Shown here in pieces: positions 8,401-63,933 of a DNA stretch of 64,000 nucleotides. Position 1 is the first letter of the stretch, and every line of letters starts with the position of its first letter. Origin of the DNA: Dendrobates tinctorius (taxonomy: Eukaryota); NCBI RefSeq assembly GCF_039654945.1, contig NW_027361679.1, forward strand, positions 105,958,001 through 106,022,000. The letters run 5' to 3'. The notes beneath the pieces are model-generated. The model was not told where the DNA came from and did not search any database. It worked only from the letters and a program-made list of their open reading frames with translations. A program made the translations under genes and the position numbers.

Positions 8401-9989
8401 AAACCTTTTACTTGCCGCGCCTGCAGCACATATTAAATGCAGGAATCTGGGAAAGTACCGCTGCAGTGTAGAAAGGGCCCTATAATTAACGCCATATGCA
8501 AAAGATAACATTAGAAATCGCCTAAAAGGTGAAGCACAGCAATAAAGAGCACACTCCATAACAGGTTAGTAGTGAAACATTAACCTATTCAGAAAATTTG
8601 CAGGTTGGTGACAAAGGACTCTTTTTGGAATTAAGAAACAGAGATGGGGGTGTTTTCCCTGTGGGAATTGTCTGGCATGTAATTTACATAATATTATTAG
8701 GACAAAAACCTTTACAACCACCGACGGTACCCGAGAATACACACTCTCTCACTATAACTCATTTAGAATATTTTGATCACTGATATTCTTAAGATAAAAG
8801 TGTCCTAATCGGTCAGTGTCCCCCAGGATATTTATGCCCATCACATATAGCGAACACATGCGGAATCACCGCATCCTACACATAGACTGGGTTATTTATT
8901 TTGTGGATACGGAGTGTCTCTGCAAGATAAATAGAGATGCTGCGATCGATAAAGACGCACCGCGTGTCTGTAATTTTGGGTTCTTCCCCAAATCTAGTGA
9001 AGCATCTGTTAGGCGTCGGATTCCTGCAGCTGCACAGCAGGAATCCAGAGCCATACATCCTGCGGTCTCCCTTTCCGACCGCTCAGGGACCTGCACAGCA
9101 ATCTCGGCGATCCAGGTGCCCTGCTCAGACCAGCTCTCTGGGTCTGGAAGTTGCTGCCACCTCTGGACCAGCAATGGTAGCGCAACCTGCTTTGCAGGAA
9201 ACCACTCCAGAGGCTAAGTCCTCTCGCCGCGCTACTGGGCACGCCCACGAGACGATCTCCCAGTGGAGATCGGGGGTCACATGCTCAGGTCCTTGTCCTG
9301 ATCTGACTGGCCCATCTCAGAGGTCTGGAAAGTCCCGGAAGTGCATGGCTATAAAAGGCCCACATGGCCGCTCGCCCATGCACTAGTATAGGCTATACTT
9401 CCTATGTGTGAATGGTGACGGATGTATGATTCTGCTGACTGACTCATTTGAAACCCTTTCCGTCTGATATTACGCATGTGGATAGGGAACTAGAAAGATA
9501 GTCAGCACCAGTCAGTGGCAAGCTATAGGCCACAGTGCATACCGCACCTCTGCACTAGCGTCCGATGGTGTCACGCCTCACGGCACTATCGTATAGCGGC
9601 AGTAGTTACCGCCGCGCTGCAGTTAGCAGCACTTACCGGCGTCCGCGGTTGCGATGCCGCACGGTAGGTCAAGACGGACACCCACCTCTGTCTTGGGCCA
9701 TGTCCTGTGACCATATACCGTGTGTGCACGCCAGCTGAGACCTGTGAAGCTAACAGGCTCGGTGTTTATGCTTTAGGGCCTCTGTGTGTTTAACAGAGTC
9801 CACTCTGTGCACCCCGGGTGACGTTTAACCCGAGCGCAGTATGCCGCCATATAAGCGAGTCCGCCTTTGCTCAGCAGCGGTTGTTGCACCTACTGCATGG
9901 TGGACCCCAGGTTTCAAACGCACTTCCTATTTATATTTAGTGCGTTTCGCCGTCCCTAACATTATACTAGAGCCAGGGTCTGGCTAGTA

Positions 9990-12900
9990 ATGACGGACCT
10001 GCTGCATTCGGCAGCAGGAGAGCAGGTTGGCAGCTATCGAGAGCTCCACCTCAGCTGCGAATGCTATGGTAGTCGTTGCTCAGGTAGTCGCAGAGGCTGT
10101 CTCGCGCGTGCCCACACTCACGCCTATACCGACAATATCTCGCCTCCTGCTCCCCGACAAGTTTTCGGGTGACAGCGCCACCTGTAGGGGATTCGTGAGT
10201 CAGTGCTCTATCCAGCTTGAGTTACTAGTTGCACGGTTCCCTACAGAGCGGGCTAAGGTGGGGTTTATTGTTTCTCTTATCTGGCAGGGCAAAAGAGTGG
10301 GCTACGCCATTGTGGGATCCCGTGGTTCATGGGGCTACTCAGTTCCTTGCAGCTCTGAAGCAGATATTTTTGGGACCATGGATCACGCACGACACCTCTC
10401 TCCAATTATTGGCCCAAACACAGGGGTCTCTCTCAGTCAGCCATTATGCCGTCCGATTCCGGCCATTGGCTTCCGAACTGGATTGGCCCGATAAAGCACT
10501 CATCCCTGTCTTTTGGAGAGGGTTAGCAGAGCATATCAAAGATGCTCTAGCAGTCAGAGAGGTCCCCACAAGTCTGGAGGAAGTGATTGCCATCTCCACC
10601 CGCATTGGTCTCCGGTTTACGGAGCGCGGGCTGGAACGTGCGCAATCCAGACGAAGGGTTAACTTGGCTCCCACCTTCACCGAGCCGCTAAGATCTTCCT
10701 CTCAGGAGCTACATCCTCCGAACCTATGGAGGTGTCTCGCACCGGCTCCAAGCCACGTCCGGTGCGAAGCTCCGCACGTTGTTACCAGTGCCGGCTGTTT
10801 GGTCACTCGGCTAGCACGTGTCCTCTGCGGTTGGAAAAACGATCACGTCCAGTGGTCATAGGTGGTGGCCAGACAAATATGAAACCCTTTTCTCCCAAAC
10901 CGGTATTCCGAGGGACATTAGATAGTGGGGCCTCCACCTGGGAGGTAAAGGTTACCATGGATTCCGGGGCTGAGGGGAACTTTATGTCCCCGACCTTCGC
11001 CCAGAAACACGCTATTCCACTGGTGTTACTGCCCCAAACTCTGACCATCAGGGTGGTTAATGGTGCACCTTTACCATCTCAGGTGACCCACCAGACAGCC
11101 CCACTCGGGCTCTCAATCTCACCCTCTCATCGTGAGATTCTGTCCTTGTTCATTTTGCCAGATGGCATCGACCAGGTGCTTCTCGGAGTTCCCTGGCTCT
11201 GTTGTCACTCCCCTCATATTGATTGGGCTTCAGGGAATATACTGGGTTGGAGCAAGGACTGTGAGGGAAGGTACGTGAAGGGCAGTGTTCAGGTAGCTTC
11301 CACTGAAGTGCCCGCGGATCTCTCCGCGCTTCCTAAACCTTACCACCAGTACGCGGACGTCTCCTCTAAAAAATCTGCATAGACGCTCCCGCCGCACCGT
11401 CCTTACGATTGCCCGATAGATCTTCTGCCAGGCACAGAACCTCCTAGAGGCTGTGTGTATCCGCTGTCACTCCCTGAGACAGATGCTATGTCTCAATATA
11501 TCCGGGAGAACCTGGCCAGAAGTTTTATCAGAAAGTCAGTGTCGCCGGCTGGTGCAGGGTTCTTCTTCATGCAGAAGAAGAGCGGAGAGTTACGTCCCTG
11601 CATTGACTACAGAGGTCTCAACGCCATTACAGTTAAAAACAAATAACCTCTCCCGTTGATCTCTGAGCTATTTGACAGGTTGCGAGGGGCCCGGATCTTT
11701 ACGAAATTAGATCTACGGGGGGCGTACAACCTGATCCGCATTCGCGAAGGAGACAAGTGGAAGACAGCCTTTAATACCAGGGATGGCCACTATGAATATC
11801 TGGTCATGCCCTTCGGCCTTTGTAATGCGTCTGCTGTCTTCCAGGATTTCGTCAATGACGTCTTCCGCGATATGCTCTCCACCTCGGTGGTGGTCTATCT
11901 GGATGATATCCTCATCTTCTCGCCAGATTTGACCTCCCACCGGAGAGACGTCTGCTGGGTCTTCGACCGTCTTCGGGTGAACTCTCTTTTCACCAAGCTG
12001 GGGAAGTGCCAGTTTGAGCAGGAGTCCTTGCCGTTCCAGGGCGACATCATCTCAGTCCAGGGGTTGGCTATGGATCCGGCCAAACTGCAAGCGGTAATGG
12101 ACTGGTAGGAACCACACTCAAAGTGGTGCAGCGCTTTCTAGGGTTTGTCAACTATTACCTCCAGTTCATACCTCACTTCTCCACACTGGTAGCTCCTTTG
12201 GTTGCTCTCACAAAGAAAGGAGCTAATCCTAACGCTTGGTCTGAACAGGTCTCCAAGGCCTTCTCGTCTCTAAAATCCCATTTTGCTGGCGCTCCCATCT
12301 TACACCGTCCTGATGTGGATAAACCGTTTATCCTGGAGGTGGATGCCTCTTCCGTCGGTGCAGGAGCAGTCCTTTTCCAGAAGGATGCTCAAGGTCGGAA
12401 GCATCCCTGCTTCTTCTCTAAGACCTTCTCACCGGCGGAGAAGAATTACTCCATTGGGGACAGGGAGCTTTTAGCAATGAAGTTGGCCTTTTCCGAGTGG
12501 AGACATCTCCTGGAGGGAGCCCGGTTTCCCTTCCAGGTGTATACGGATCATAAAAATCTGGTCTATTTACAAACGGCCCAGCCGCTTGAACTCTCGTCAA
12601 GCTAGGTGGTCGCTCTTCTTCTCCCGCTTCCGCTTCACCTTGCACTACCTCTCTGGAGACAAGAACGTCCATGCGGATGCTCTCTTGCACTCGGTGGTCT
12701 CAGCGGAGGAAGGGGAGGCTGAGCCACGGTTAATTCTCCCTCCGCAGAGTTTTACGACCGTGGCTCCAGTTGCTCTCGAATCATTGCCACCGGGCAAGAC
12801 CTTCGTGCCTCCTCATCTACGGCCGGAGGTTCTCGCCTGGGCGCACGCGTCCAGGGTGGGTGGTCACTTTGGCAATAAGCGGATCACAGAACTCCTGGCA

Positions 12901-14033
12901 AGGTCGTATTGGTGGCCGCACAAGACTCGAGACACTAAGGAATACATACAAGCATGCGTCTCGTGTGCACGGAACAGGTCCTCTAGACAGAGGCCGGCTG
13001 GGTTATTGTACCCTTTGCCGGTGGCGGATAGACCTTGGGAGATGGTTGGCATGGATTTTGTGGTTGGCCTGCCCAAGTCTGGTGGCAGTACGGTCATCTG
13101 GGTGGTCACTGACCATTTTTCTAAAATGGTGCATCTGGTGCCACTTGCACGGTTGCCTTCTGCTCATGGTCTTGCCACACTGTTAATAAAACATGTATTC
13201 CGTCTGCATGGCATGCCGGACAAAATTGTCAGTGATCGAGGTCCCCAGTTTGCGTCCCGGTTTTGGAGGGAGTTCTGCAGCCTACTCAGCATTGAGCTAA
13301 ACCTGTCCTCCGCTTACCATCCCGAGACGAACGGCTTGGTTGAGAGAGCCAACCAAACCTTGGTCACGTACCTGCGGCATTTCGTCTCTGCCAGGTAGGA
13401 TGACTGGGCACCCTTGCTACCATGGGCTGAATTTGCCCTGAATAATGCAGTGGCTGATTCCACTGGTCAGACGCCGTTCCTTCTAAATTACGGCCAGCAT
13501 CCGCACGTCCCTGTCCCGATGCCAGTGTCCTCCGCTATCTCCAGGGTGGCAGACAGGGCAGTGGAGGCTTGCGACATTTGGGATCGCACTCATAATGCAA
13601 TTCGTGCCTCTAAAGAGAGAATGAGGGCATCCGCTGGCTCTCTGCTCGAAACATCAAGCTGCGGGCCGAGTCCTCCAAGTTCGCGCCGCAATACATCGGA
13701 CCTTTTAAGGTTCTCGAGCGAATCAGCTCGGTGGTCTACCGCCTGGCTCTTCCTCCACATTTAGCCATTTCTGATGTTTTTCATGTGTCCCTTCTCAAAC
13801 CTGTTCACATGGCCCGTCTCTCTGAGTCATCTGCCGGGTCATCAGACTTGTCTTCGGACGAGTTTGAGGTTAACGCCATTGTGGGAGGCAGGATTGAGCG
13901 TGGCAAAAAGTTTTTATTTGGTGGACTGGAAGGGTCATGGTCCAGAGGCCCGGACCTGGGAACCTGTGGAGAACATCCACGCTCCACTCCTGATCGCAGC
14001 CTTTGAGCGTAGCGAGGCTCAGAGGGAGGGCAA
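9990..14033 (+). pseudogene. E1 gag-pol pseudogene
   Basis: Gag LPDKFSGD and CCHC knuckle CYQCRLFGHSASTC, protease MDSGAEGNF, RT YLDD, RNase H VDASSVG, integrase H-H-C-C plus SDRGPQF and ERANQTL, chromodomain EFEVNAI..YLVDWKGHGPEARTWEP. In-frame stops near 11380, 11644, 12106 and 13396, plus several frameshifts. Confidence 0.93.
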
Positions 14034-14038
14034 TGTTA

Positions 14039-14438
14039 GGCTAGTTTCACACTAGCATTTATGAGCGCAGCGACAGCCTGCGCACGGCCGCCGCTAAGCC
14101 CCACCCCCTGCCACCACAGTAGCTCCGCCCACCGGCACATGACGCTGCATGCGCCCCCTATCTTTATCACTGGGGCACAGGCTGTGCACAGTATGCGTTT
14201 GGCAGCGCATGCGTCCTTTTGACGGTGCGCCAAACGCAACCTGCTGCAGTTTGGTTGCGTCGGCGCACCGTCAACAAGGCGCATGCGCCGCCAAACGCAT
14301 ACTGCGCACGGCCTGCGCCCCCTGTGATAAAGATAGGGGACGCAGGGTGCATGCAGCGTCATGCACCGGAGCTACCGGCGGAGGCGCGGCTTAGCGTCGG
14401 CCGTCGCTGCGCTCATAAACGCTAGTGTGAAACTAGCC
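14039..14438. mobile_element. PIF/Harbinger-type (Tourist-like) MITE inserted in the E1 3' LTR
   Basis: TIR GGCTAGTTTCACACTAGC / GCTAGTGTGAAACTAGCC, TTA TSD, internally palindromic, absent from the 5' LTR. Confidence 0.92.
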
Positions 14439-15683
14439 TTAGGCGTCAGATACCTGCAGCTGCACAGCAGGAATCCAGAGCCATACATCCTGCGGTCTCC
14501 CATTCCTTTCCGACCGCTCAGGGACCTGCACAGCAATCTCGGCGATCCAGGTGCCCTGCTCAGACCAGCTCTCTGGGTCTGGATGTTGCTGTCACCTATG
14601 GACCAGCAATGGTAGTGCAACCTGCTTTGCAGGAAACCACTCCAGAGGCTAAGTCCTCTCGCAGCGCTACTGGGCACGCCCACGAGACGATCTCCCAGTG
14701 GAGATCGGGGGTCACATGCTCAGGTCCTTGTCCTGGTCTGATTGGCCCATCTCAGAGGTCTGGAAAGTCCCGGAAGTGCATGACTATAAAAGGCCCACAT
14801 GGCCGCTCGCCCATGCGCTAGTATAGGCTATACTTGCTATGTGTGAATGGTGACGGATGTATGATTCTGGTGACTAACTCATTTGAAACCCCTTCCCTCT
14901 GATATTACGCATGTGGATAGGGAACTAGAAAGATAGTCAGCACGAGTCAGTGGCAAGCTATAGGCCACAGTGCATACTGCACCTCTGCACTAGCGTTCGA
15001 TGGTGTCACAGCACTATCGTATAGCGGCAGTAGTTACCGCCACGCTGCAGTTAACAGCACTTACCGGCGGTTGCGACGCTGCACGGTAGGTCAAGACGGA
15101 CACTGACCTCTGTCTTGGGCCGTGTCCTGTGACCATATACCATGTGTGCACGCCAGCTGAGACCTGTGAAGCTAACAGGCTCGGCGTTTATGCTTTAGGG
15201 CCTCTGTGAGTTTAACAGAGTCCGCTCTGCGCACCCCGGGTGACGTTTAACCTGAGCGCAGTATACCGCCATATAAGCGAGTCCGCCATTGCTCATCAGC
15301 GGTTGTTGCACCTACTGCACAGTGGACCCCGGGCGGCGAACGCACTTCCTATTATTTATATTTAGTGCGTTCCGCCGTCACTAACAGCATCATAGTAATC
15401 TTAGTGTATGCAATCTTTTGTCTTTGCAGTAATAGAAATGCTTTAAAACATTCTCTCTCTTATTATTCTAGCATTTGGCAAATATTAATATTTATGGTAA
15501 TGGTACTTGACCAAAAAAGGGGAAAGGTTTATTCTGATTTCATGTCAGATATTGAGAAAAACATGCGTGTGTCTTTTTATGTAGTGTATGTAAACTTCTG
15601 GTTTCAACTGTAGGTAAATTTGATCATGTTTATGATGTTTTTGTTTTAACATGGCACACAATGTACCATTATTTTCATGGTAC

Positions 15684-22226: not shown

Positions 22227-23634
22227 TGAGAAGAAAAAAATTCCCCCTACAGCCTCAAAGACATAGAGGAAAAAATATACACAAAAAAAAATTCCTTTTT
22301 TTTTTTTTTTTTTTTTACAATTCTTTCCTGCTATTGAGTACCCTAGAATCTGCGGTATGGCTGGTGATTCTGTTATGAATGAGTCACCGAAGGAGGAAAA
22401 AACAAAAATACAAGCTAAGTCCAGAAAACTGGAGAGGTTGGTAGCTATCGGATTGCAGACCCCTGATCCTATTCACACAACTAACAGTAGCCGTGGGGGG
22501 GTTCCTACGGTGCCCTAGACCCCTCGTTCACAGCCAGAGAACTAAATAAGCCTAAAGAAAGAAAGGGGAAATCTAAACTGCCCCAGAGCAGACCCCAAAG
22601 CAATAGACAGCCCCCAACATGTATTGTCGGTGAAAAGCAGATGAAAACACAAACACAGACAGAAAGACAGGTTGAGCAAACGATGGGGCCCAACTAACTA
22701 AATAGGAAAGGACAGAAAAGATGCTGACTGCAATCTGCAAAAATACTGCCAAAATAATGTCCAACACGTCTGATAGAAAAAAGGCCCTGAAGTCAGTAGA
22801 CTTCAAAAACACTATATCAGCACTCAGGTATATTCTGAAGACTGAGCAAAAGATCAACTTGACCAGAGACAAAAATGGAGCTCAGCCTGTACCAACAAGG
22901 GCAGGCAGAACACAAACACTAAGTAAACAGACAATATCTCATGGAAAAATAAGAGAGCAAATACTTAGCCTTCAGAAGACAGGTACTGAACTGGTTTGCA
23001 AGAGCTCAGAGCAGAAAGGATCACCAGCACCCCTGTAGGGCGTCGGCTGCCTTATATCCACTCAGTGATTCCGGGTGTCCAATCAGGCTCCACCTGTTCA
23101 GATGACAGGTTCTTCCCAACCCAATTAATTTCACTACCTCTCTTCACCAGCAGAGGGAGTTCATCAGACATCAACGGTGAAGGGGAAAATGAACTCACAA
23201 CAATGATGCCTATTTATGTGAAAAACTATACCCTCTATATCTGAAGCATAGAGTATACATTCAAAAACACAAAACTCACACACTTAACTAACATTTTAAC
23301 TTCAAACAAGTGTCATTTTTATCAAAAACAGCCATATTAAAATCATATGGCAAATTAAGGAATTATTTGTGGGCTCTGTCTTGGGACAAGGTATTGGCCA
23401 CTTGGGTAAGGGTAGGTAAGCTCATGTGGAATTTAGTATTGCATATGGCTAAACCTCCCAGAATGGCCATGTTGAACATTCCCATGTTGAGACCATTCTC
23501 CTACAGTGGGTAAGTACAAGTGGCCATATTGGGCAGGTACAGCTGGATTTGGGAAGTTTAATTGTGGTGCTTATAATTGGAGGCGTTGGTAAGGTGTTTG
23601 CTGTGGATGAGGTGATGGGATCCATGGGAGAGGT

Positions 23635-32902: not shown

Positions 32903-34318
32903 GGAATCAAATTTATTAACCAATGGAGGCCTGGATTTGGAGTCCCACACAAAATTAAAGTGGAATGTTGAGACTGTGTGGACCCCATCTGGAATGTAAT
33001 GTCCTTAAAACAAGTCAAAATGATGCTCAGTAATGTGTGTGGCCTCCACGTGCCTGTATGACCTCTCTACAACGTCTGGGCATGCTCCTAATGAGGCGGC
33101 AGATGGTGTCCTGAGGGATTGCCTCCCAGACCTGGACTAAAGCATCTGCCAAATCGTGGACAGTCTTTGGTGCAAAGTGACGTTGAATGGAGCGAGACAT
33201 GATGTCCAAGATGTGCTCAATCGGATTCAGGTTTGGGGAACGGGCCAGTCCATAGCTTCAACGCCTTCATCTTGCAGGAACTGCTGACACACTCCAGCCA
33301 CATGAGGTCTTGCATTGTCCTGCATTAGGAGGAACCCAGGGCCAATCGCACCAGCATATGGTCTCACAAGGGGTCTGAAGATCTCATCTCAGTACCTAAA
33401 GGCAGTCAGGCTACCTCTGGCGAGCACATGGAGGGCTGTGCGGCCCTCCAAAGAAATGCCACCCCAGACCATTACTGACCCACTGCCAAACGGGTCATGT
33501 TGAAGGATGTTGCAGGCAGCAGATCGCTCTCCACGGCGTCTCCAGACTCTGTCACATGTGCTCAGTGTGAACCTGGTTTCATCTCTGAAGAGAACAGGGT
33601 GCCAGTGGCGAATTTGCCAATCCTGGTGTTCTGTGGCAAATGTCAAGCATCCTGCACGGTGTTGGGCTGTGAGCACAACCCCCATCTGTGGACGTCGGGC
33701 ACTCAGACCATCCTCATGGAGTTGGTTTCTAACCGTTTGTGCAGACACATGCACATTTGTGGCCTGCTGGAGGTCATTGTGCAGAGCTCTGGCAGTGCTA
33801 CTCCTTTTCCTCCTTGCACAAAGGCTGAGGTAGCGGTCCTGCTGCTGAGTTATTGCCCTCCTACGGCCCCCTCCAAATCTCTTGGTGTTCTAGCCTGTCT
33901 CTTGGTAGCGCCTCCAGCCTCTGAACACTACGCTGACAGACACAGCAAACCTTCTTGACACAGCTTGCATTGATGTGCCATCCTGGATGAGCTGCACTAC
34001 CTGAGCCACTTGTGTGGGTTGTAGAGTCCGTCTCATGCTACCACGAGTGTGAAAGCACAACCAACATTCAAAAGTGACCAAAACATCAGCCAGAAAGCAT
34101 TGGTACTGAGATGTGGTCTGTGGTCCCCACCTGCAGAGCCACTCATTTATTGAGGTTGGCTTGATAATTTTGCCAATAATTTCCATCTGTTGTCTATTCC
34201 ATTTGCACAACAGCATGTGAAATTGATTGTCAATCAGTGTTGCTTCCTAAGTGGACAGTTTGATTTACTTGGAGATATATTCTGTTGTTTAAGTGTTCCC
34301 TTTATTTTTTGAGTAGTG
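32903..34318 (-). mobile_element. Tc1-like transposon with a transposase pseudogene (about 34036-33027). One end is truncated
   Basis: End TA-CACTACTCAAAAAATAAAGGGAACAC. Peptides [40 protein letters not shown](I), LIRSMPRRC..ARGGHTHY. Frameshifted. Confidence 0.92.
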
Positions 34319-40862: not shown

Positions 40863-41877
40863 ATGGGTCAGAAGAGAGATTTGATGGACTCTGAAAAGTA
40901 AAAAATTGTGAGATGTCTTGCAGAGGGATGCAGCAGTCTTGAAATTGCCAAACTTTTGAAGTGTGATCACCGAACAATCAAGCGTTTCATGGCAAATATC
41001 CAACAGGGTCGCAAGAAGAGTGTTGGTAAAAAAAGACGCAAAATAACTGCCCATGAATTGAGGAAAATCAAGCGTGAAGCTGCCAAGATGCCATTTGCCA
41101 CCAGTTTTGCCATATTTCAGAGCTGCAACGTTACTGGAGTATCAAAAAGCTCAAGGTGTGCCTTACTCAGGGATATGGCCAAGCTAAGGAAGGCTGAAAA
41201 ACGACCACCTTTCAACAAGAAACACAAGATAAAATGTCAAGACTGGGCCAAGAAATATCTTAAGACTGATTTTTCTAAGGTTTTATGGACTGATGAAATG
41301 AGAGTAACTCTTGATGGGCCAGAAGGATGGGCCCGAGGCTGGATCAGTAAAGGGCAGAGAGCTCCACTCCGACTCAGACGCCAGCAAGGTGGAGGTGGGG
41401 TACTGGTATGGGCTGGTATCAAAGATGAACTTGTGGTACCTTTTCGGGTTGAGGATGGAGTGAAGCTCAAATCCCAGACCTACTGCCAGTTTCTGGAAGA
41501 CACCTTCTTCAAGCAGTGGTACAGGAAGAATTCGGCATTGTTCAAGAAAAACATGATTTTAATGCAGGACAATGCTCCATCACATGCATCCAAATACTCC
41601 ACAGCGTGGCTGGCCAATAAAGGTCTAAAAGAAGAAAAAAATAATGACATGGCCCCCTTGTTCACCTGATCTGAACCCCATAGAGAACCTGTGGTCCCTC
41701 AAAAAATGTGAGATCTACAGGGAGGGAAAACAGTACACCTCTTGGAACAGTGTCTGGGAGGCTGTGGTGGCTGCTGCACGCAATGTTGATCGTAAACAGA
41801 TCAAGCACCTGACAGAATCTATGGCTGGAAGGCTTTTGAGTGTCATCGTAAAGAAAGGTGGCTATATTGGTCACTGA
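40863..41877 (+). pseudogene. Tc1 DD34E transposase pseudogene
   Basis: MGQKRDL start, WTDE, QDNAPSH and SPDLNPIENLW motifs. Premature TAA at 40899 and a frameshift in the A-run near 41635-41641. Confidence 0.93.
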
Positions 41878-44740: not shown

Positions 44741-49775
<5,035 letters not shown>

Positions 49776-57726: not shown

Positions 57727-58572
57727 CATGTTGTTAGGGCTGGCGGAACGCACCAAGTTATAAATAATAGTAGGTGCGTTCGCAGCCCGGGGTCTACCGT
57801 GCAGAGGTGGTACACTACTGCTAGGTAATGGCGGAAGAATAGAGCGGCGTGAAAACAGTCACACGTGGGTTACATCACCCAGTGTGAACAGAAGCGAACT
57901 CTGTTGACTCACAGAGCCGCACAGTCGCTGAACGCAAATACTGGAGCCTGTTTAGCTCACAGAGCCCGGCCAAAAAGCGCACAGAAAGCGGCCACAGAAC
58001 TCTACCCCAAGGACACGAGGTTAGAGTTCCTCTAGGCCCTCTGAGCACACGGCGTCGCTGCCGCGAATGCCGCTGGCTATGGAGTGTGGAGCACGTGCAC
58101 TGAGGCGTGCCGAGTCACTGATGGGTACTAATGCCTGACTCCGACTCTGCCCTACCTACACCTAAGCCTGGGCGCTAGCAGGCTAGGCTGCACAACACAT
58201 GCGTACCAAGGGTAGGGGTTTCATAATGAGTCAGTCACCAGAGACATTCATACGTGCATACATCACTCACTCCTCACAGTCTGAAAACCCAGTGTATCCT
58301 AGCGCATGGCTGAGCGGCCAGGCAAACCTTTTATAGCCGCGAGCGTCCGGGACCTTCCTGGCTTCTCGGATGGGCCAATCCGAACAGGACCTAAGCACGT
58401 GACCTTCGATCTCCAATGGGAGATCACTCCACAGGCATGCTCAGTGGCCCGACATGAGGACTTAGTCCCTGGAGAATCTCGCTGCTGAGCAGCCTGCATT
58501 GCCATAGCTGTGCCAGAGGTGGCAGCAGCAAGCAAACCCACGGAGGTGGTCTGGGCAGAGCGCCGGGACCGA

Positions 58573-61500
58573 CTAGTTTGCTGAGCAACCTCCTCTGCGG
58601 CTGGGGAGGAATGGGAGACCGCCGGGAGCAGGGCTCGGGATTCCCACTGTGCAGCAACAGGAACCTGACCGCCTAACATTACCCCCCCTCCTAGGGCCCC
58701 CCCTCTCCGAGCCTCGCACCGCTTGAATTCCGCAATGAGAAGTGGAGCGTGGAAGTTCTCCACCGGCTCCCAGGACCGAGTCTATGGACCATGACCCTTC
58801 CAATCCACCAAATAAAAAACTTTTTGCCCCGCATCATCTTGCAACCCACAATGGCATTGACCTCAAACTCATCAGATGACAGGTCTGATGTCCCGGCAGA
58901 TGGCTCTGAAAACCGGGACATTTGAACCGGCTTAAGGAGGGACACATGAAACGTGTGAGAAATAGCCAAGTGTGGTGGAAGGGCCAGGCGGTAGACCACA
59001 GGATTGATCTGCTCGAGGACCTTGAAAGGGCCAATATAGCGCAGTGCGAACTTAGCGGATTTAGCCCGCAGCCTGATGTTTCGGGCAGAAAGCCACACTA
59101 AGTTGCCTGGGGCGAAGGTCAGAGCAGGACGCCTGTGTGCGTCAGCGGAGGCCCTCATTCTCTCCTTGGAGGCCCGGATAGCATCCTGCGTGCGAACCCA
59201 AATTTCATGTGCCTCCACCGCCCAGTCTGCCACCCTAGAGTCGGTGGATGACACGGGCATGGGCACGGGGACGCGCGGATGCTGGCCGTAATATAAGAGG
59301 AATGGGGTCTGACAGGTGGAGTCGGCCACAGCGTTGTTCAAAGTGAACTCCGCCCATGGCAGCAAGGATGCTCAGTCATCATGCCTGGCCGAGACAAAAT
59401 GTTGCAGATATGTCACCAGGGTCTGGTTGGCTCTCTCAACCAACCCATTCGTCTCGGGATGATAGGCCGAGGAGAGATTTAGCTCGATGCTGAGCAGAGA
59501 ACAGAGCTCTCTCCAGAACCGAGATGCAAACTGAGGGCCTCAGTTGCTGACAATCTTATCCGGCATGCCGTGCAGGCAGAAGACATGTTTATTAAACAAC
59601 GCTGCCAGGTCCCGTGCAGAAGGCAGCCGCGAGAGTGGCACCAGATGCACCATCTTGGAGAAATGATCGGTGACCACAAAAATTACGGTGCTGCCACTGG
59701 ACTTGGGCAGACCCACCACAAAGTCCATACAAACCATCTCCCAGGGTCTGTCTGCTATTGGCAGGGGATAGAGTAACCCAGCGGGCCGCTGCCGAGAGGA
59801 CCGATTCTGAGCGCAAGAGACACACGCCTGAATATAGTCCCTGACGTCACGGGCCATATGCAGCCACCAGTACGTCCTTGCCAGGAGATCAGAGGTCCGT
59901 TTGGTCCCAAAATGTCCCCCCACCCTAGACGAATGAGCCCAAGAGAGGACCTCCGGTCGCAGATGGGCAGGGACAAAAGTGTTGCCCAGAGGTACCGACT
60001 CGAGAGCAACCGGAGCCACGGTCCTCAGGCTCTCCGATGGGACTATCAGCCGAGGCTCCTCCTCCTCCGATGACACCACGGAGCGAGAAAGAGCGTCAGC
60101 CCGGACGTTCTTCTCCCCGGAGAGAAAATGCAGGGTGAAATGGAATTGGGAGAAGAACAAGGACCATCTGGCATGGCGAGAATTCAGCCGCTGGGCTGTC
60201 TGTAGATAGACCAATTTTTTGTGGTCGGTGAACACCTGGAAAGGGTGGAGAGCCCCCTCCAGGAGGTGTCTCCACCCCGAGAAGGCCAGCTTCATTGCTA
60301 ACAACTCCCTGTCCCCAATGGAATAATTCCTCTCCGCCGGTGTGAAGGTCTTAGAGAAGCAGCATGGGTGCTTCCGACCATACGAGTCCTTCTGGAACAG
60401 GACCGCTCCAGCACCGACGGAATAGGCATCCACCTCCAGAATGAAGGGCTTATCTACATCGGGGCGATGTAGAATGGGAGCGCTAGCGAAGTGGGATTTA
60501 ATAGAAGCGAAGGCATTGGAGACAGTTTCCGACCACAGTTTGGGGTCTGCACCCTTCTTGGTGAGGGCTACCAAGGGTGCTACCAAAGTTGAGAAATGGG
60601 GAATGAATTGGCAATAGTAATTTATGAACCCCATAAAGCGCTGCACCGCTTTGAGAGAATGGGGTTGTTGCCAATCCATCACCGCCTGTAGTTTGGCAGG
60701 ATCCATGGCCAAACCCTGGGCAGAGATGATGTAGCCAAGGAAAGGCAAGGACTCCTGCTCAAACACATATTTCTCCAACTTGGCATAAAGGGAGTTTGCC
60801 CGCAGGAGATCGAAAACTTTGCAAACATCTCTCCGGTGGGAGTCAATATCTGGAGAGTAAATGAGAATATCGTCCAGATACACTACTACAGAGGTGGTAA
60901 GCATATCCCGGAAGATATCGTTCACAAAGTCTTGGAAGACGGCTGGAGCATTACATAGCCGGAAGGGCATCACCAGGTATTCATAGTGCCCGTCTCTGGT
61001 GTTAAATGCCGTCTTCCATTCGTCCCCATCACTGATGCGAATCAGGTTATAGGCTCCCCGCAGATCAAGCTTAGTAAACACTCTCGCTCCCCATAGCCCA
61101 TCAAACAGTTCTGATATCAGGGGCAGAGGATATTTGTTCTTAACTGTTATGGCGTTAAGACCCCTGTAATTGATGCACGGACGTAATTCTCCTTTCTTCT
61201 TTTGGACAAAGAAGAATCCCGCTCCTGCCAGGGACACCGACTTCCTAATGAATCCTCTTGCCAGATTCTCCCTGATATACTGAGACATGGCCTCTGTCTC
61301 TGGGAGAGATAGGGGGTAGACTCGACCCCGAGGAGGCTCAGCACTGGGCAAGAGGTCAATAGGACAGTCGTAAGGGCGGTGAGGCGGAAGGGTCTCTGCC
61401 GCCTTCTTGGAAGAAATGTCTGCATACTGCTGATACGGCTTGGGAAGCGAGGAGAGATCTGTGGAAACCTCAGGAGGTAGCGACCTGTACGCAGTCCCTC

Positions 61501-61933
61501 AGACACCTACCCTCGCAGGACTTGCTCCGAGGATTTTTCCCGAGTACCACTCTATATGAGAGTGAAATCGTAGCCAGGGAACCCCTAGGAGGACCTGGTC
61601 GATACCTTCGGGCATAACAAGAAGAGACAGCATCTCCTGATGAGGAGACAGTGAGAGCCTCAGTGGAGCCATCTGGTGGGTGATTTGGGATGGGAGTGTC
61701 GCACCATTCACCACTCTGACAGTGACTGGTTGAGGTAGCAGGACCAGGGGAATTGCGTGTTGTTGGGCGAAGGCAGACGACATGAAATTGCTCCCCGCCC
61801 CAGAGTCCACGCAAACCTCCACAATCAGAGTGGAAGAATTGAACTCTAACACCCCTTTAAACAGGAGCTTGGAGGAGAAAGTCACTGTGTCTAGTAGGCC
61901 CCCTCCGATAACCACTAGACGTGAGCGTTTCCC
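58573..61933 (-). pseudogene. E3 pol (PR, RT, RH, IN, chromodomain)
   Basis: Protease VDSGAGSNF. A 603-aa RT-RH-IN ORF at 59540-61351 with YLDD. YIGPFKV and chromodomain EFEVNAIV. Interrupted by stops and frameshifts. Confidence 0.93.
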
Positions 61934-62800
61934 GACCACTGTGGGCACTGGTTAGCAAAGTGCCCAGTCTGCCGACAACAGAAACAGACTGGAGATACCC
62001 GTGCAGGCCGGGACTTGGACCCCGTGCGGGACACCTCCATGGCCTCTGGAGGCTCGTGCGGCTGTTCGGGAGATTCCAGCAGTCTAGCAAAGTTTGGAGC
62101 CAACCTATATCGTTGGCTGGACTTGGAGCGCTCCAGCCCTCGCTCGGTGAAGCGAATGTTAATTCAGGTGGAGACTGTAATGAGCTCCTCCAAAGTGGTG
62201 GGCACCTCCCTGGTAGCCAGGGCGTCTTTGACATGATCAGCCAGGCCTCTCCAGAATATAAGTATGCAAACCTTATCTGGCCACTCCAGCTCGGAGGCCA
62301 GAGTTCTGAAGAGGATGGCATACTGGCTGACCAGAGACGGACCCTGGGTTAGGGCCAGCAACTGAAGTGCGGTGTCATACGTGACCCGAGGTCCCAGGAA
62401 CACCTGCTTCAGAGTGAGCAGAAAATGGGTGGCACTCTGTACCAGGGGATCCCCACGCTCCCACAGCAGGGTGGCCCACTCCAAAGCCCTGCCCGACAGG
62501 AGGGAGATGATAAATCCCACCTTGGCCCGCTCAGAGGGAAATCGTGTGGCTGGCAACTCCAGGTGAATGGAGCACCGACTCACGAACCCCTGCATGATGC
62601 ACTATCACCCGAGAACTTCTCGGCAGCGGGAGGCGAGACAAGGTCGGGGCAGGGCTGGCCGTGGAGACACGGGCGACAGCCTCTGTAGCTGCTTGAACAG
62701 CGACCGAGGCAACATCCGCAGCTGAGGTGGAACGCTCTAGCGCTGCCAACCTACCCTCCAGCTGCTGGATGTACCTGTGCAGTCGTTGTTCGTCCGCCAT
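61915..62800 (-). pseudogene. E3 gag (frameshifted), ends CFCCRQTGHFANQCPQWSGNAHV*
   Basis: ORF fragments 62531-62800, 62164-62595 and 61915-62103. Homologous to E1 gag, with a CCHC knuckle. Confidence 0.9.
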
Positions 62801-63933
62801 TACTAGCCAGACCCTGGCACTAGGATAATGTTAGGGTTGGCGGAACGCACCAAATTATAAATAGTAGGTGCGTTCACAGCCCGGGGTCCACTGTGCAGAG
62901 GTGGTACACTGCTGCTAGATAATGGCGGAACAATAGAGCGGCATGAAAACAGTCACACATGGGTTACATCACCCAGTGTGAACAGGAGCGAACTCTGTTG
63001 ACTCACAGAGCCGCACAGCCGCTGAACGCAAATATGGGAGCCTGTTTAGCTCACAGAGCCCGGCGAAAAAGCGCACAGAAAGCGGCCACAGAACTCCACC
63101 CCAAGGACACGGGGTTAGAGTTCCTCTAGGCCCTCTGAGCACACGGCATCGCTGCCGCGAACGCCGCTATAGACGCTGGCTACGGAGTGTGGAGCACGTG
63201 CACTGAGGCGTGCCGAGACACTGATGGGGACTAATACCTGACTCCGACTCTACCTACAACTAAGCCTGGGGACTAGCAGGCTAGGCTGCACAACACATGC
63301 GGGGGTTTCATAATGAGTCAGTCACCAGAGACATTCATACGTGCATACATCACTCACTCCTCATAGTCTGAAAATACAGTGTATCCTAGTGCATGGCCGA
63401 GCGGCCATGCAAACCTTTTATAGCCGTGAGCGTCCGGGACCTTCCTGGCTTCTCGGATGGGCCAATCTGAACAGGAGCAGGACCTGAGCACGTGACCTTC
63501 GATCTCCAATGGGAGATCACTCCATGGGCATGCTCAGTGGCCCGACAGGAGGACTTAGTCCCTGGAGAATCTCGCTGCTGAGCAGCCTGCATTGCCATAG
63601 CTGTGCCAGAGGTGGCAGCAGCAAGCAAACCCACAGAGGTGGTCTGGGCAGAGTACCGGGACCGACGAGCTTGCTGAGCAACCTCCTCTGCGGCTGGGGA
63701 GGAAAGGGAGACCGCCGGGAGCAACAGGAACCCGATGCCTAACACATGTTATGTCCCCCCATATATTTCCCCACAGCTATCCCTTAGTTCCCACAGCCAC
63801 CCTTTTGTGTATACGTCCCCACAGCCAGCCTCACTTGTATATCTCCCCATAGTTAGCCACATGTTTACACATCAAGACAGCCAGTTCCACAGTATTTGTC
63901 CTCACAACCAGCCCCATGTTAATATGTCCCCAC

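Follow-up and report, generated by a model that had tools for sequence, protein, structure and literature searches.

Paired changes between the predicted RNA 5' end and the primer-binding site in a chromodomain retrotransposon family of Dendrobates tinctorius

The window analysed here (a stretch of 64,000 nucleotides of the Dendrobates tinctorius genome) contains a decayed LTR retrotransposon, E1, in which the site for primer binding (PBS) complements an 11-nt segment of its own LTR, R1-11, as well as a sister copy, E3, in which one pair of this duplex differs on both sides. The question raised by this locus is whether such a paired difference reflects a functional coupling between the two arms, as expected from an element that primes reverse transcription with its own RNA, or merely the decay of two individual copies.

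Anatomy of E1 and of its R:PBS duplex

E1 displayed the features of a Ty3/gypsy element (Table 1), with TG...CA LTRs, a 5-bp TSD, a PPT, the domain order PR-RT-RH-IN and no env. Pfam matches to gag, protease, RT, RNase H, integrase, SH3_Tf2-1 and Chromo were found in separate frames, and the copy is therefore decayed; a zinc-knuckle match in Gag was weak. In line with a chromovirus, a chromodomain (PF00385, E=1.7e-7, 13765-14055) was located at the integrase C-terminus. The MITE inserted in the 3' LTR ends in perfect inverted repeats of 18 bp, is accompanied by a duplicated TTA, and is presumably Harbinger-like, judging by its TSD. Elsewhere in the window, an ORF on the reverse strand (49088-49711) matched Arrestin_N (E=1.5e-11), possibly a host exon or a retrocopy, and Tc1/mariner-type transposase fragments were present at 33389-33889 (-) and 40902-41669 (+). 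Rfam and ARAGORN searches of the window returned no matches.

Table 1. Positions, within the window, of the elements and features discussed in the text.
Feature	Position	Strand	Remarks
E1, decayed chromodomain Ty3/gypsy LTR retrotransposon	9007..15386	+	TG...CA termini, TSD, Pfam domains
TSD of E1	9002-9006 and 15387-15391		GCATC, perfect duplication
E1 5' LTR	9007..9961	+	94% identity to 3' LTR, MITE excluded
E1 TATA box (TATAAAA)	9350..9356	+	30 nt upstream of primer segment, a spacing common to 117/131 related loci
E1 R1-11, predicted RNA 5' end and self-primer	9380..9390	+	start placed by TATA spacing
U5 arm of predicted third, crossing helix	9902..9907	+	pairs with 9976-9981
Terminal U5 stem-loop	9917..9946	+	9917-9924 with 9939-9946; loop-closing pair T:A in E1, C:G in E3
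E1 PBS	9963..9973	+	complementary to R1-11, without TGG
Arm downstream of PBS	9976..9981	+	also in competing local hairpin
E1 gag-pol region	9990..14033	+	pieces in several frames, chromodomain last
E1 PPT	~14021-14030	+	inside gag-pol region
E1 3' LTR	14034..15386	+	R1-11 copy at 14815-14825
MITE, 400 bp	14039-14438		inserted in E1 3' LTR
E2, distant family	22360..23056	-	TATA 23056; 9-nt segment 23028-23020 complementary to PBS 22368-22360
E3, sister subfamily of E1	57732..63744	-	TSD ACATG
E3 R1-11	63392-63382	-	3' LTR copy 58305-58295
E3 PBS	62827-62817	-	

The R segment of E1, GCACTAGTATA, is located 30 nt downstream of the TATA box and has a counterpart in the 3' LTR, GCGCTAGTATA, the TATA box of which is at 14785. 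On the basis of this spacing, transcription would start at 9380. The PBS, TATACTAGAGC, begins one base past the terminal CA of the LTR and pairs with R1-11 at 10 of 11 positions; the coordinates and the pairing given for E1 in the earlier note all held on recheck. Within the 955-nt LTR, 9380 was the sole site matching the PBS at 10 or more of the 11 positions, and a site of this quality was found anywhere in only 16 of 2000 shuffled E1 LTRs. A splice-assembled primer was also considered and is unnecessary, the R:PBS match being contiguous.

The difference first noticed between the two copies, T:A in E1 and G:C in E3, was confirmed and concerns pair 8. As had also been remarked, U5 has diverged between the duplex arms: from R12 to a point 80 nt short of the PBS, E1 and E3 are 62% identical (54% on average after shuffling). 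Identity was 80% over the final 80 nt; in U3 it was 75%, and in the 300 nt that directly follow the PBS it was 72%. The sole mismatch of E1 is at pair 3, a CpG site at which E1 differs from the family state, and the change on the R side is restricted to its 5' LTR. At the same pair, E3 has A:T, which looks compensatory but is most likely a double CpG decay, because the 3' LTR of E3, like that of E1, has G there. As E3 pair 3 illustrates, a single pair compared between two copies is not enough to demonstrate coupling.

Covariation of the duplex across the lineage

The possibility that the E1/E3 difference was copy-specific decay, put forward in the earlier note as what would overturn its reading, was tested copy by copy. 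Pair 8 was T:A in all 24 anchored E1-like loci (30 fetched) and G:C in 25 of 26 anchored E3-like loci (30 fetched), while genome-wide matches to the E3-type LTR had G at this position in 846 of 877 cases and another base in 31. The pair-8 change is thus fixed between the subfamilies.

For the lineage as a whole, 200 loci were fetched, from which one without a PBS anchor and 21 duplicates (same place or identical local sequence) were dropped. Among the remaining 178, which were partly chosen for PBS variants and are hence enriched for them, 140 could be anchored at R independently of the PBS and 38 could not; R1-6 served as the anchor and exhibited no covariation. In these 140 loci, R carried the complement of the minor PBS allele in 20/21 cases at pair 7, 42/42 at pair 8, 9/10 at pair 9 and 11/11 at pair 11. 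R7-11 was perfectly paired with its own PBS in 104 of these loci, whereas 1000 shuffles of PBSs across copies gave 30 on average and never more than 42; 660 of 700 cells were paired in register, versus at most 273 of 700 when the register was slid by 1-3. Because shuffles ignore relatedness, trees were added. When the tree was built from the LTR interior without the duplex (127 tips), the minimum numbers of changes at pairs 7, 8, 9 and 11 were 5, 3, 2 and 1; a gag tree (140 tips) gave 5, 5, 4 and 4. The LTR tree thus implies at least four paired changes and perhaps as many as about 11, four being the safe minimum, as recombination or weak branches can inflate the count.

The position of the R arm was fixed relative to the TATA box. 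In a blind scan, 131 of the 178 loci had a site upstream of the PBS matching at 10 or more of 11 positions; 121 of these sites were 27-33 nt downstream of a TATA-like word, 117 of them at exactly 30 (background 1.6%). The base preceding R1 paired in 0/144 loci. In the subset ordered by place, 22 of 30 loci were anchored, with 17 perfect duplexes, three at 10/11 and two at 9/11. One clade (5 loci) kept a C opposite T at pair 11, and primer length may accordingly vary. The R:PBS covariation is real, and stronger than first noticed.

The same geometry, with letters differing from those of E1 and E3, was kept in two other families. A perfect 9-bp match at TATA+28 was found in 28 of 30 loci of the E2 family, and a perfect 11-bp R:PBS match at TATA+31 in 24 of 30 loci of a third family located outside the window (L121-L150). 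In all three families, the PBS adjoins the LTR end at 1-3 nt. The third family has a DUF4939 gag, with open frames of 1474 aa in some copies.

The pattern of the LTR-PBS junction had 4,654 exact matches in the genome. Copies of the family are regularly spaced by ~5 kb at G000:C102:23623928-23639060 and G000:C15:21889925-21900109, possibly because neighbouring elements in tandem have LTRs in common, an arrangement described for Tf1/Tf2, or through local duplications. Copies of the pair-11 variant subfamily are clustered at G000:C3:269423-869765 (L250-L260), where a spacing of ~2.1 kb between some of them suggests internally deleted elements in a segmental array.

Self-priming and the alternatives to it

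The fixed change at pair 8, together with the covariation of three more pairs, indicates that the R and PBS arms are functionally coupled. We consider it highly probable that, in the E1 family, the element's own RNA serves as the primer of reverse transcription, through self-priming of the Tf1/sushi type. From a mechanistic point of view, the transcript would start at 9380 and R1-11 would anneal to the PBS within a three-helix structure, an annealing strongly supported by the covariation; by analogy with Tf1, the RNase H of the element would then cut after about base 11, and the released R fragment would prime minus-strand DNA. An RNase H domain is present in E1 (Pfam).

In the predicted fold of 9380-10000, R was joined to the PBS in both the MFE and the centroid structures (z -4.2, 20 shuffles). 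Among 46 copies selected to be diverse, two-sided changes occurred in 6 of 11 pairs of the terminal U5 stem; one of these, a C:G/U:A pair (23 vs 21 copies), also separates E1 from E3. The bulge of the outer U5 stem shifts position between subfamilies. The covariation score of the whole named structure exceeded those of all 500 shuffles and all slid registers, although the structure was derived from the same sequences and these controls lean its way. As for the putative third helix, 97% of cells were paired, with zero two-sided changes, and its rival local hairpin is almost invariant. This 5-bp hairpin (9973-9985), which starts from the last PBS base and competes with the third helix, could act as a switch.

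The earlier note had read the covariation as a sign of selection on the duplex, and had not named Tf1/sushi self-priming as the mechanism. The functional coupling that this implies is borne out by pairs 7, 8, 9 and 11; selection itself is only partly demonstrated, because a paired change could also be completed, with no second mutation needed, if the primer is copied into the PBS. Selection for priming probably maintains the pairing, and such copying may contribute. The strongest alternative, a variant of this main explanation, accepts self-priming and disputes only the word selection: R would mutate first, and the plus strand would then copy the primer into the PBS, so that paired changes were completed mainly by templating. 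Under the standard strand-transfer model, an altered primer could be written into the progeny PBS. In Tf1, the primer is copied into PBS DNA, and the PBS copy is retained in full at the 3' end of about half of the cDNA (PMC11042837). Thirteen elements that carry a variant in R7-11, and of which both LTRs were recovered, were informative in this respect (the second LTR was not recovered for five R7-11-discordant elements, L014, L057, L175, L301 and L310). Two of them, L056 and L292, carry the variant in both LTRs with the old PBS unchanged, which is the predicted first step, and one, L293, with an E3-type LTR, has T in both LTRs and a matching PBS; the repeated paired changes on the LTR tree point in the same direction. 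By contrast, nine of the 13 carried the variant in one LTR only, as expected of decay, the pattern of L049 was complex, and L293 may have arisen by recombination with a T:A subfamily. Moreover, no newly compensated rare state was seen: of 82 matches with the rare bases G or T at PBS position 4, 79 were examined, and the complementary R base was found in 0 of the 59 in which R was located. The U5 stem covaries as well and, since it is not copied from the primer, favours selection on RNA structure. The LTR and PBS tallies are thus compatible with the templated route, which we regard as possible but rather doubtful as the main source of the paired changes.

In L049/L268, an element of the E3 clade, the two LTRs disagree at R7, at R8 and at one further site close by, and the PBS agrees with the 3' LTR; this may result from conversion, recombination or repeated decay.

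Much less probable is that the duplex has a structural role in the RNA leader (for circularisation, dimerisation, packaging or translation control), the primer being something else. Covariation does demonstrate pairing rather than priming, and the adjoining U5 stem is conserved too, but the partner sits exactly at the place of a PBS, 1-3 nt past the LTR end, in three families, pairing ends sharply at the predicted +1, and the LTR end is not followed by TGG. That the primer is a host tRNA, or a fragment of one, and the LTR match a by-product is more improbable still. tRNA priming is the default among LTR elements (PMC6317226), but none of the PBSs listed for the sampled loci begins with TGG, in a comparison confined to the PBS start, and the PBS differs by subfamily, tracking the R of the element itself rather than a fixed outside sequence. 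As to coincident decay in two copies, it does occur at E3 pair 3, and the rare PBS variants represent uncompensated decay, but the pair-8 states are fixed within their respective subfamilies, so that it is refuted for pair 8 and has a negligible chance of explaining the E1/E3 difference.

Relation to Tf1 and significance of the paired changes

Self-priming by the element's own RNA has a known precedent. In the literature consulted, it has been demonstrated in Tf1 of fission yeast, vertebrate elements being only implicated, and Tf1/sushi self-priming is stated to extend to the latter (PMC6317226, PMC4600332). Self-priming and a 'pretzel' have already been reported for the vertebrate chromovirus group, with Butler 2001 cited as the source, and the available portions of PMC3601003 and PMC2864245 hold nothing contrary to self-priming. 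E1 shares with Tf1/Tf2 of Schizosaccharomyces pombe a chromodomain Ty3/gypsy organization, a 5' segment of 11 nt with complementarity to a PBS immediately past the 5' LTR, and flanking helices between PBS-adjacent and LTR sequence, which in E1 are predicted. It differs from them by its vertebrate host, a loop of ~580 nt between primer and PBS and thousands of decayed copies; the fission-yeast elements also lack the zinc knuckle weakly matched in the Gag of E1. Self-priming of Tf1 is experimental and that of E1 predicted from sequence; E1 very likely works like Tf1.

E1 is likely a member of the Tf1/sushi group. This was judged by features, none of which failed among those tested: the PBS lacks TGG and is complementary to an LTR segment at TATA+30. 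In its general anatomy, E1 corresponds to vertebrate chromoviruses. The nearest proteins to the pol of E3 were gypsy polyproteins of frogs (89-90%), Xenopus (59%) and fish (~52%), many with a chromodomain and several labelled Tf2-like. The best match in a PDB search was Ty3 Gag-Pol, which is uninformative on group membership.

R:PBS covariation is what a known mechanism, already proposed for this group, would be expected to leave behind, and as such is of low surprise. Our literature search found no report of subfamily-level covariation of this duplex in vertebrates, though Butler 2001 may contain one. A modest new angle is the templating question, which can be addressed by computation; the thousands of copies in this genome contain the intermediates for testing it. 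We put forward, as a tentative proposal, that the primer and PBS of vertebrate self-priming chromoviruses evolve in concert by this route, one mutation in R becoming a compensated pair in the next round; if true, templating gives each subfamily a private primer 'barcode'. A practical rule for annotation also emerges, namely that the start of the transcript can be predicted from the PBS. In a very large vertebrate family, both arms of the duplex have changed together at four positions, which offers strong comparative support for self-priming there.
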